Of a DNA stretch of 32,000 bases, positions 9,664 through 18,702 are shown in pieces. Source of the DNA: Candidatus Saccharimonadota bacterium (GTDB lineage: Bacteria > Patescibacteriota > Gracilibacteria > Absconditabacterales > Absconditicoccaceae); assembly GCA_000503875.1 (NCBI GenBank), contig CP006913.1:570001-602000 (forward strand), in the 5' to 3' direction. The notes beneath the pieces were generated by a model. That model did not search any database. It was not told where the DNA came from and saw only the letters and a list, made by a program, of their open reading frames with translations. The translations under genes were made by a program, and so were the position numbers. The number at the start of each line of letters is the position of its first letter. The stretch's first letter is position 1.

Positions 9664-11199
9664 TTACACAGTAGGCTCTACTCTTTTATAAATAATTTCT
9701 GGCTTCAAATCTACCGTAAACTCTTTCATATCAAATGCTTGTTGAAAAGAATCATCCAACATATTTTTGGTAGAATCAACTTTTGATAATACCTCGTTTC
9801 CAAACATAGTTTGAATCTTGCTAAATCCATTTACCAAAAAAGGAGCTGACAATAATGCCAGATTTTTTACAATATACAATAAAAATTTTAAATCTGATAT
9901 TGCTTCTTCTTTAGTCGCTTCATCCTTATATTTTTTCCATGGCTCAGCTTTGGTTATATATTCATTTGCAGATTGCACCAGTCTATATCGATCTTGTAGA
10001 TATCATTGAAGATTACCTGATTTTAAATATTTTTCTTCTATTGTTGAAATAGAAAATCAAGAAAAGAAATTTTCATCAGTGCATTTTCATGCTGTAATTT
10101 CATATTTACTACACAAACTCACTACTCTATTAACCAAGTTTCATCGAGCACCGATAAGCATACTTTCATAAAGATTTCAAAGTCTTTCCTCTGAAAAATC
10201 TCCATCAGATCAAATAGGTACATCATACATCAACATAAATACTACCGCATCTCTATCATATTTCTCTATCATTTCAACTGGATCAATCACATTTCCAAGT
10301 GATTTACTCATCTTTTGACCATCAACCGTGAAGTATCAAGTCACGTATTCATGATTTGGTAGAGCCATTTCTGCACTCATCAACATTGCAGGCCAAAAAA
10401 TTGCATGAAATCTCACTATATCCTTTCCCAAAATATGTACTTTTTCTGTCGTTTCATCTCGGAAACCCTCTTGTTGAGAAACTGTAACATAATTAAATAA
10501 TGCATCATACCAAACATAAGTAACCTGACTAGGATCAAATGGAAGTGGAATACCAAAGGTATTGGTTTCTCTAGAAACAGAGAAATCTTCCAATCCTCCT
10601 TCTACAAAAGATTTTACCTCATTAAATCTATAACCTGGTTCTACAAAATTTGGATATTCTTTATAAAAATCTTTGATGGCTTGTTCATATTTTTTGAGTT
10701 TAAAAAATCGATTTTTTTCAGTAAGAACATCAGGTGTTTTTAAATGATCAGGACAAATAAGATCCCCTTTTTCATTTTTAACTAAATCTGATTCTTTTTT
10801 AAAACTTTCACATCCAACACAATAATATCATTTATACAATCATTCGTAAATATCTCATGCATCATATGCTTTTTGAAGTACCTTCTGTACAAGTTCTTTA
10901 TGATGAGGCGCTGTTGTTCTGATAAAATCAGTATAAGTAATAGAAAGAGATTGCCATACTTCTTCTCGTTTTTTTGCCATAGCATCTAGATATTCCATTA
11001 CTGGTGTTCCTTCTTCTTGTGCTTTTTGTAATATTTTTTGACTATTTTCATCATTTCCTGTAGAAAATTTTACTTCATATCATAAAAGTCTCTTATATCT
11101 TGCATATACATCTGCAATGAAACTACTATTAGCATGTCCTATATGTGGATATCCATTAGGATAATAAATCGGTGTAGTTACTAGAAATTTCTTTGCCAT
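9664..11199 (-). CDS. metG: Methionyl-tRNA synthetase (511 aa)
   Basis: [23 protein letters not shown] (HIGH-type motif); [19 protein letters not shown]; [25 protein letters not shown] (KMSKS); anticodon-domain block [12 protein letters not shown]. Track ORFs 10336..10593 and 9664..9978 are in frame. No in-frame TAA/TAG between 11199 and 9667. The stop lies 22 bp upstream of the dnaE-fragment start. Confidence 0.95.
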
Positions 11200-11285
11200 C
11201 CAATATCATAAAAAAATAAATGCTGATCTTTTAATATAGTTTCTACTTATTTTTTCAAGTCAACCTCACATTTCTTACACTCGAA

Positions 11286-11313
11286 TTGAAAACAGAAGAG
11301 ATATTACTATAGT
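11286..11313 (+). promoter_or_regulatory. Candidate sigma70-type promoter for the SbcC-like gene (TTGAAA, 16-nt spacer, TATAGT)
   Basis: ttgaaa at 11286..11291 and tatagt at 11308..11313, in the 177-bp divergent intergenic region. In AT-rich DNA such matches also arise by chance. Confidence 0.3.
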
Positions 11314-11376
11314 ACCAAAGAGAAAAACGATAAAACAAAATTATTAACTTTTAAAATCTACTGAATTCAAGCAATT

Positions 11377-17183: not shown

Positions 17184-17192
17184 TTTTAAAAG

Positions 17193-17216
17193 GATGCCCA
17201 GAAGGCATCTTTTTTT
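17193..17216. terminator. Hairpin terminator between the convergent EnvC-like gene and cysS (probably bidirectional)
   Basis: gatgcc (17193..17198) / ggcatc (17204..17209), 5-nt loop, T7 on the plus strand (17210..17216) and a T/A-rich tract on the other side. Confidence 0.6.
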
Positions 17217-17226
17217 CTGATATAAA

Positions 17227-18702
17227 TTAATTTTTTGTTATTTCATAGCCATCTTTGTTATCTTTTACATTCCATCAGAGCTCAGTTATCTTATTCCTAA
17301 GTTCATCAGCCAATGCATAATTTTTATCTTGCTTAGCTTGAATTCTTTGATCAGCAAGAGCAGTTATTTCGGCAGGAATATCAAGTTTTATTTCTTCAAT
17401 AAGATCAAATAAACCAACTTTTAAAAAACGTTTTTCTAATCGATATAATAAATTAATAATTTCTTCATTTATATCACTAATATAAGTATTAATTACAGCT
17501 ATTACTTTTGGTGTATTTATATCATCACAAATCGCATCCAAAATTTCTTTATGAAATTTTCTTGCTTGATCAGTTTTTAGATCTTTTCAAAGCTCAATAA
17601 AAGATCAATCTATAGTAATATTTTCAAAATTTAATTTTCTTATCTGTACTTTTTTTTTAAGATTATATCTACTTTGTTTGGCTACATCCATACTATTTCG
17701 AGTAAAATCGAAAAAACTACGATAATGAGTTGTAAAAAAGAAATATCTAATATCCAAATAATCATATCATTTATCCAAAACTTCATAAGGAGAAACTATA
17801 TTACCATCAGATTTTGACATTTTTTTACCATTCATATTCACAAACTGATGATGAATTCGGTATTTTACCCATGGATGAACATCAAAAGCACATTCAGATT
17901 GTGCAATTTCATTTGTATGATGAATAGGAATTAAATCATATCATCCATGATGAATATCAAATTGGTTTCATAAATATTTACTAGACATTGCACTACACTC
18001 AGCATGCCAACCTGGAAATCAAATTCATCGAGGACTTTCTCGTTCCATATCTCTCTTACCACTACCTACATGAAATTTCCACAAGGCAAAATCAGTAAGA
18101 TTTTTTTTTCATCACATATCAACTCTCTCTCATCATTGAATTCCCTCTAAATGTTTTTTATAATTTAAACCAAGTAGTTTACCATAATCACTAATTTTAC
18201 TGGTATCCATATACACTCCATCACCATCAATAATATATGTATATCATTTCTCTTCCAACATTTTAACAAGGTCTATCTGTTCTTGAATATATTCTGTAGC
18301 CCTAGGCATAACATCAAATTCATCTATATTCAATCATTTAAAAAAATCTCTAAAAATTTGTTCATATTTTTTTGCAACATCTCGAGCAGATATTCATTCT
18401 TTTTTTGCAGCCTTTTCCATTTTTTCATCACCATCATCACTATCTCAAGCCAAATGACCAACATCAGTAAAATTACTCATAGATATTACTTTATATCAAA
18501 GAATATTTTTTATTACATTTCTGATTAAGTCAGCCGTAAAAGCAGCTCTTACATTACCAAAATGAGGCATACCATAAACCGTAGGTCCACAACTATAAAA
18601 ACCCACAAAATCTTTTTTTGGTCAATGATAATTAGGATCTTCCATCAAGGGTACAAATTCTTCTTTTTGACGAGTAAGAGTGTTATAAAGATGCAGTTTC
18701 AT
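17227..18702 (-). CDS. cysS: Cysteinyl-tRNA synthetase (491 aa)
   Basis: MKLHLYNTLTRQKEEFVP; CGPTVYGMPHFGNVRAA (HIGH-like); ..ESP-x-GIGFPGWHAECSAM; FDIHHGGYDLIPIHHTNEIAQS; GKKMSKSDGN. No in-frame TAA/TAG between 18702 and 17230 (checked). Track ORFs 17275..17541 and 18622..18816 are in frame. The start is placed at the conserved MKLHLYNT rather than at the upstream extension to 18816. Confidence 0.95.

Follow-up and report, generated by a model that had tools for sequence, protein, structure and literature searches.

We analyzed a 32-kb stretch of DNA (the window; GC content, 29%) from the genome of an uncultured bacterium of the Absconditabacteria/SR1 type, in which two codons appear to have left the standard genetic code. 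UGA is apparently read as Gly, and CGA is apparently read as Trp instead of Arg, probably together with the very rare CGG. Judging from the comparisons described below, we consider this two-change code very probable. CGA is found on invariant or conserved Trp columns and never on Arg columns, and it swaps with UGG. An earlier note on this DNA had proposed the reassignment of CGA to Trp, and conserved protein columns, codon exchange with the syntenic relative L081, and paralogous repeats within the window all agree with that proposal. The eleven codons named in the note are all where it placed them, on the strands it gave, and in frame in long open reading frames (ORFs) that use TGA as a sense codon.

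The window corresponds to approximately positions 213,433 to 245,432 of contig DPJE01000003.1 (462 kb) in assembly GCA_003543185.1, with 0 mismatches in the overlaps. This assembly is recorded as "Candidatus Gracilibacteria bacterium", failed GTDB quality control, and has a CheckM completeness of 0.50. CGA = Trp is already known, having been published for this same assembly in 2021, and literature from 2026 counts it among the accepted cases. Shulgina and Eddy 2021 (eLife 10:e71402, PMC8629427) label GCA_003543185.1 "likely Absconditabacteria" in their Figure 4-source data 1, where its Codetta calls are UGA = Gly, CGA = Trp, and CGG = "?". Those authors described a clade-level reassignment in a low-GC context and stated that decoding in vivo needs experiment (PMC8629427). 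The earlier note had referred to a published screen predicting that CGA and CGG encode Trp in an Absconditabacterales clade. That remark was right and even understated, because the assembly itself is listed with CGA = Trp. What we add to the 2021 screen is limited to modest quantitative points: the CGA share of Trp codons, its dependence on the gene, and an asymmetry between the window and L081.

Codon usage and UGA as a Gly codon

With translation table 11, ORFs of at least 150 amino acids cover 13% of the window. When TGA is treated as a sense codon, coverage rises to ~100%, in 14 long ORFs. These TGA-sense ORFs have 10,412 codons, including 310 TGA, 64 CGA, 1 CGG, and 48 TGG. The Arg-type codons in them are AGA (160), CGT (30), AGG (14), and CGC (3). 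Gene models for the 14 genes, each begun at its first ATG, contain 63 CGA, 1 CGG, and 47 TGG codons. Trp content would be 0.46% if it came from TGG only but 1.08% if it came from TGG plus CGA.

TGA accounts for 303 of the ~790 Gly codons in the window (38%). The genes for cysteinyl-tRNA synthetase (CysRS) and methionyl-tRNA synthetase (MetRS) have 26 TGA columns between them, for which the Gly log-odds was +39.2. Furthermore, the partners of TGA in L081 and in paralogous repeats are GGN or TGA. ORF coverage, log-odds, and exchange with GGN all support UGA = Gly, as the earlier note had it.

CGA codons on Trp columns of CysRS and MetRS

The CysRS gene (17227..18702, minus strand; PDB CysRS matches, E = 2e-82) contains 6 CGA, 4 TGG, and 18 TGA (Gly) codons. 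A CysRS protein scan of GTDB returned 80 Patescibacteria loci. The 75 loci without in-frame TGA were used as a standard-code comparison set. Four others were UGA-recoded (L001, L002, L004, and L028), and L064 was set aside for in-frame stops. Columns were read from a MAFFT alignment, and those with CGA were counted over the 75 standard-code homologues.

Three of the CGA codons, all on the minus strand like the gene, occupy columns that are Trp in 75/75 homologues. Two of them, aa221 (18040-42) and aa225 (18028-30), make up the motif [CGA]-E-S-P-[CGA] (18028..18042), and L081 has TGG at the former and CGA at the latter. The third is aa282 (17857-59), in the block K-Y-[CGA]-I-H upstream of KMSKS. 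An ordinary TGG at aa232 (18007-09) is also on a column with Trp in 75/75. The earlier note had assigned these four codons to conserved Trp positions, and the alignment bears this out for each. CGA is also found at aa107 (18382-84), where the column is Trp in 69/75 and Tyr in 6/75 homologues, and at aa335 (17698-700), where it is Trp in 51/75 and Phe in 13/75. L081 has TGG at both. The sixth CGA, at aa421 (17440-42), is on a variable column. If CGA is Trp, CysRS would have 10 Trp residues (4 TGG plus 6 CGA), and its homologues have 7 to 13. CGA or CGG also occupies Trp columns in the four other UGA-recoded GTDB CysRS genes. AGA, AGG, and CGT codons of CysRS are on columns that are Arg in up to 75/75 standard-code homologues.

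The MetRS gene (9664..11199, minus strand; PDB MetRS matches, E = 8e-114) contains five CGA codons on the same strand. We read their columns from 24 standard-code homologues found in a metagenome scan. In the block E-K-N-[CGA]-F-F-K-L, the CGA at aa164 (10708-10) is on a column that is Trp in 24/24 homologues and Tyr in three PDB MetRS proteins. This matches the Trp-or-Tyr position for which the earlier note had taken it. The remaining columns are Phe in 23/24 (aa78, 10966-68), Lys in 14/24 (aa247, 10459-61), Leu or Ile (aa352, 10144-46), and Ile (aa404, 9988-90). L081 has TGG at all five sites. AGA, AGG, and CGT in MetRS are also on Arg-invariant columns. Two motifs that the earlier note had cited as clear Arg positions, FIRTT in MetRS and GLRIG in an aminotransferase, both use AGA. 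Arg is encoded by AGA, then by CGU, AGG, and CGC. PDB alignments of CysRS and MetRS concur with the homologue columns.

When the two synthetases were pooled, 6/11 CGA codons fell on the 18 Trp-majority columns among 903 columns (hypergeometric p = 1e-8), and 0/11 fell on the 19 Arg-majority columns. The earlier note had suggested inference from codons to profile columns in the manner of Codetta, and we ran such a check for CGA on CysRS and MetRS. Trp was the best assignment, with a summed log-odds of +21.7 nats; Phe came next (-12.8), and Arg scored -22.1. Control codons decoded as expected: TGG as Trp; AGA, AGG, and CGT as Arg; TGA as Gly; AAA as Lys; TTT as Phe; and TAT as Tyr.

CGA exchanges with UGG in a relative and in paralogous repeats

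The metagenome scan yielded one close syntenic relative, L081 (JGI contig Ga0334899_1000366; GC, 26%), with a MetRS that is 82% identical. Its gene order is g9, CysRS, M23, transmembrane protein (TM), SbcC, MetRS, PHP, and surfA. We compared 5,426 aligned codon pairs between the window and L081. The partners of window CGA (n = 34) were CGA (19), TGG (11), CGG (2), a Tyr codon (1), and an Ile codon (1), and 0/34 pairs were with AGA, AGG, CGT, CGC, or Lys codons. Window AGA was paired with AGA (51), Lys codons (14), and AGG (5), and window CGT was paired with CGT (12) and CGC (3). The earlier note had held that Arg at the CysRS and MetRS sites of close relatives would speak against Trp. At these sites, L081 has UGG or CGA.

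The window also encodes two giant surface proteins, surfA and surfB, and we compared their paralogous repeats by blastp on chunked proteins. The 37 CGA pairs included TGG (11), CGA (2), and CGG (1), and an Arg or Lys codon was the partner in 0/37. Repeat variants include VTWIDKE / VT[CGA]IDKE and ATWSDN / AT[CGA]SDN. As the earlier note remarked, CGG is almost unused; one in-frame CGG is present in the window, at 6386-88 on the minus strand (surfA). In L081 its partner is CGA, as it is in a paralogous copy of the repeat. The four CGG codons of L081 are opposite CGA twice, TGG once, and a Glu codon once. Because of this pattern of exchange in L081 and in the repeats, CGA, and probably CGG, belongs in the UGG synonymous class, apart from the Arg class.

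tRNAs and a possible route to reassignment

ARAGORN found no tRNA in the window and its two 10-kb flanks, and Rfam found no tRNA in 72 kb. ARAGORN also did not find tRNA(UCG) in five UGA-recoded GTDB loci, which contained only tRNA-Gly(GCC), or in 25 metagenome loci, which contained only tRNA-Leu. There is no Absconditabacterales tRNA(UCG) sequence in the supplements of PMC13092985. For GCA_003543185.1, the table of Shulgina and Eddy 2021 gives tRNA gene counts by anticodon of ACG 0, GCG 1, UCG 1, CCG 1, and CCA 1 (PMC8629427). Their criteria for Trp identity of a tRNA were G73 and no A20. They reported that the anticodons and identity elements of the clade's tRNAs fit reassignment, and they ascribed the split CGN box to the missing inosine tRNA-Arg(ACG) (PMC8629427). 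In our data, CGT is on Arg columns and exchanges with CGC, which is consistent with the published ACG 0 and GCG 1.

The mechanism that follows from that study (Shulgina and Eddy 2021) is one in which tRNA(UCG) and tRNA(CCG) would have lost the Arg element A20 and would carry the Trp discriminator G73. Tryptophanyl-tRNA synthetase would charge both, and together they would read CGA and CGG as Trp, with CGG also within reach of the UCG anticodon by wobble. CGU and CGC would stay Arg by means of a separate tRNA-Arg(GCG), there being no inosine tRNA-Arg(ACG). The UCG and CCG tRNAs would thus hold one half of the CGN box and tRNA-Arg(GCG) the other, a 2:2 split.

The history may have been one of codon capture. 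AT pressure (GC, 29%) would have made CGA and CGG rare, the identity of the tRNA would then have switched, and CGA would have regained frequency at Trp sites through the synonymous intermediate CGG. CGA and UGG are two positions apart, and the sole fully synonymous route between them would be through CGG. Both exits from CGG (G to A at position 3 and C to T at position 1) would be favored by AT pressure, which fits the vanishing rarity of CGG. Because CGA and UGG have equal GC content, GC pressure by itself gives no reason to expect one over the other.

A gene for an MnmA-type tRNA 2-thiouridylase, which acts in U34 modification, is located ~6 kb outside the window (16277-17053 of flank L108; window ~-6740 to -5680). 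U34 modification enzymes bear on the wobble restriction of UCA and UCG anticodons.

Uneven use of CGA and UGG

Of the inferred Trp codons in the window, 58% are CGA, compared with a published genome-wide Pfam-column figure of 32% (binomial p = 7e-8). Per 10,000 codons, the window has 62 CGA and 46 UGG, and the published Pfam-column figures are 25 and 56. The source table for GCA_003543185.1 gives, per 10,000 Pfam columns, AGA 289, CGU 45, CGA 25.4, CGG 1.7, and UGG 56.3, with a GC content of 0.31 (PMC8629427). CGA outnumbers UGG by 63 to 47 in the window overall and by 38 to 20 in its non-surface genes. Over 51 kb (the window plus flanks L107 and L108, -9744 to 40945), the choice of Trp codon depends on the gene (chi-square p = 4e-6). 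Counts of CGA plus CGG against TGG are 0/10 in ProRS, 0/10 in a neighboring gene for a 444-aa hypothetical protein, 1/4 in MnmA, and 2/7 in UvrD. They are 9/1 in g9, 4/0 in the aminotransferase gene, 6/4 in CysRS, and 5/4 in MetRS. At orthologous Trp sites, CGA in the window is opposite TGG in L081 11 times, and the reverse occurs 0 times.

We considered GC content as the cause of these differences between genes and rejected it, because the high-GC ProRS and aminotransferase genes behave oppositely. Strand likewise fails to account for the unevenness. It is possible, although we think it doubtful, that the reassignment is further advanced and more dynamic here than the literature's picture of an early stage in which the codon has not yet rebounded. 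Trp might then be migrating out of the UGN box in an ongoing, directional, and possibly selected process, with UGG exposed to wobble misreading by an abundant tRNA-Gly(UCA). L081 speaks against a simple form of such misreading as the driver, because it uses more UGA-Gly (68% versus 38% of Gly codons) but fewer CGA-Trp codons.

Weighing the readings of CGA

Several points weigh against CGA, with CGG, being a Trp codon. CGG is represented in the window by one codon only. Two CGA columns are uninformative: CysRS aa421, because of its variability, and MetRS aa247, which is mostly Lys in standard-code homologues. The ratio of CGA to UGG is very uneven among neighboring genes, and a simple neutral model does not predict this. 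For the charging of the tRNA we rely on published work, because there is no tRNA in the window or its 10-kb flanks. Finally, we found no peptide evidence or proteomic confirmation of CGA = Trp in the literature that we searched. The earlier note's statement that experimental proof is lacking agrees with a 2026 preprint, according to which experiments have yet to verify these Arg reassignments.

If CGA were still Arg, as in NCBI table 25, then Arg would have to be tolerated at all of the positions described above. This is the default in every official translation table, and the MetRS aa247 column, which is Lys-rich in standard-code homologues, would suit it. However, CGA occupies 0/11 Arg-majority but 6/11 Trp-majority columns, with log-odds of -22.1 against +21.7, and an Arg or Lys partner occurs in 0/34 orthologous and 0/37 paralogous pairs. 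AGA, AGG, CGT, and CGC interchange mutually and with Lys codons, and the Trp content implied by CGA = Arg, 0.46%, is implausible. We give this reading next to no weight. Another bulky hydrophobic or aromatic residue, such as Phe, Tyr, or Leu, might be considered because the columns of MetRS aa78, aa352, and aa404 and of the aminotransferase CGA codons are Phe, Tyr, Ile, or Leu in distant homologues. That is extremely improbable, because four CysRS and MetRS columns with CGA are invariant Trp, the runner-up Phe scored -12.8 against +21.7 for Trp, and where L081 or a paralogue has another codon in place of CGA, it is overwhelmingly UGG rather than UUY or UAY. We found nothing in favor of an artefact, whether a sequencing or assembly error or RNA editing of CGA to UGG. 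In L081, which was assembled independently, 19 of these sites are also CGA, and CGA or CGG occupies Trp columns in four other UGA-recoded GTDB CysRS genes. For editing to be the explanation, each of more than 60 codons within 32 kb would have to undergo two specific base changes. The artefact explanation as a whole is hardly credible.

It is also conceivable that decoding is ambiguous, with CGA being mostly Trp but appreciably Arg too, or being read inefficiently, either because the UCG and CCG tRNAs have a dual identity or because a residual tRNA-Arg competes. The sites with CGA would in that case form a statistical mixture. According to Shulgina and Eddy, this could be excluded by experiment only (PMC8629427). 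Some genes are without CGA (ProRS and its 444-aa neighbor, each 0/10) and others use CGA almost exclusively, a pattern that might arise if an error-prone codon were selected against in certain proteins. However, CGA is found at Trp sites that are invariant in 75/75 CysRS proteins, within the WxSPWG block, and 5/5 MetRS CGA codons are UGG in L081. Also, a codon that supplies 58% of the inferred Trp codons in the window is hard to square with serious error. Therefore, we regard ambiguous decoding as unlikely and favor the two-change code, in which CGA would be a regular Trp codon.

CGA codons in other genes of the window

The earlier note had also named five CGA codons in other genes, all on the plus strand (16173-75, 14020-22, 14056-58, 19448-50, and 19583-85). 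The first is in a gene for an M23 peptidase (15270..17183, plus strand; Pfam Peptidase_M23), which has CGA at 16173-75, 16350-52, and 16752-54; L081 has CGA, TGG, and CGA, respectively. For 16173-75, the proposed W-P motif, PDB alignments begin downstream, and the sole relative that covers it, L081, has CGA. A gene for an MFS-like membrane protein (13972..15129, plus strand; weak Pfam MFS_1 match) has CGA at 14020-22, 14056-58, 14296-98, and 14626-28, all in hydrophobic stretches. The corresponding L081 codons are CGA, CGA, TGG, and CGA. For 14020-22 and 14056-58, in predicted transmembrane helices, the hydrophobic context and the conservation of CGA in L081 weakly suggest Trp.

A class I/II aminotransferase gene (18821..20113, plus strand; Pfam Aminotran_1_2) has four CGA codons (19448-50, 19511-13, 19583-85, and 19742-44) and 0 TGG. 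In PDB relatives, the column at 19448 is Phe/Val/Tyr, and that at 19583 is Phe/Phe/Phe, in keeping with the normally hydrophobic positions described in the earlier note. This gene is absent from the syntenic L081, where CysRS and g9 adjoin. It has a higher GC content (0.36), and TGA accounts for only 3/23 of its Gly codons, yet CGA supplies 4/4 of its Trp codons. The gene may have come from another organism with CGA = Trp, as an insertion specific to this lineage.

Gene g9 (20261..22696, plus strand) encodes an ATP-grasp_ST and MATCAP fusion, according to Pfam, and contains 9 CGA and 1 TGG. At the CGA sites, L081 has CGA in 7/9, TGG in 1/9, and ATA in 1/9. By Pfam, g9 is part of a peptide-ligase-like cassette of four consecutive genes (20261-26492, plus strand), of which the g9 part is kept in L081. 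The cassette members are the 811-aa ATPgrasp_ST plus MATCAP protein, a 292-aa RimK-like ATP-grasp protein, a 416-aa Mur-ligase-like protein, and a 508-aa 7TM_transglut membrane protein.

The giant repeat surface protein genes are at the two ends of the window. surfA (2..8332, minus strand) runs off the window end and contains 9 CGA and the sole in-frame CGG. surfB (27444..32000, plus strand) has 16 CGA and 9 TGG within the window. With the flanks included, surfA encodes at least 3,604 aa and surfB encodes 1,829 aa. surfA carries beta-helix-like "NNIQSYNN" repeats, and surfB carries immunoglobulin-like "ATITGFSETTTNLN" repeats that end in VTWIDK. Both have a very high TGA-Gly content. A stand-alone ORF for a PHP domain that resembles the DnaE N terminus (8700-9641, minus strand; 313 aa) has a true stop at its end, and the polymerase core is absent alongside it. 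The L081 copy is equally short and 77% identical.

Significance and comparison with known codes

Sense-to-sense reassignment in free-living cellular genomes is very rare, and a genome with a double change is a natural test case for code evolution. No official translation table covers CGA = Trp. Table 25 would place Arg at 63 probable Trp positions in 14 genes of the window, including the WxSPWG block of CysRS. Public gene calls (L106, window 11254-32000) treat TGA as a stop, and they divide CysRS into 36-aa and 54-aa fragments and g9 into four. Public protein sets for GCA_003543185.1 are therefore badly fragmented, and they have Arg at CGA where Trp is probable.

Like the window, the code of NCBI table 25 (SR1/Gracilibacteria; Campbell 2013, Rinke 2013) has UGA as a frequent Gly codon. 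However, it keeps CGA and CGG as Arg, and CGA does not behave as an Arg codon in the window. The yeast CUG reassignments (to Ser in the CTG clade and to Ala in Pachysolen) are also sense-to-sense changes in a cellular, nonorganellar genome with an identity-changed tRNA, but they differ in the domain of life, the codon, and the amino acids. The yeast cases have been verified by mass spectrometry. In Anaerococcus and in the RFN20 Bacilli/Onthovivens (PMC8629427; PMC13092985), as probably in the window, an Arg CGN codon has been captured by Trp at low GC through a dedicated tRNA with features of Trp identity. In those bacteria, only CGG became Trp; CGA stays Arg by means of tRNA-Arg(ICG), and tRNA(UCG) is absent. 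In the window, by contrast, CGA itself is probably reassigned and is abundant, and UGA is recoded too. The Absconditabacteria code (PMC8629427) is the same phenomenon, and in both Arg is encoded chiefly by AGA, with CGG being very rare. There is no qualitative difference between them, but the window uses CGA more, and in a manner that depends strongly on the gene.

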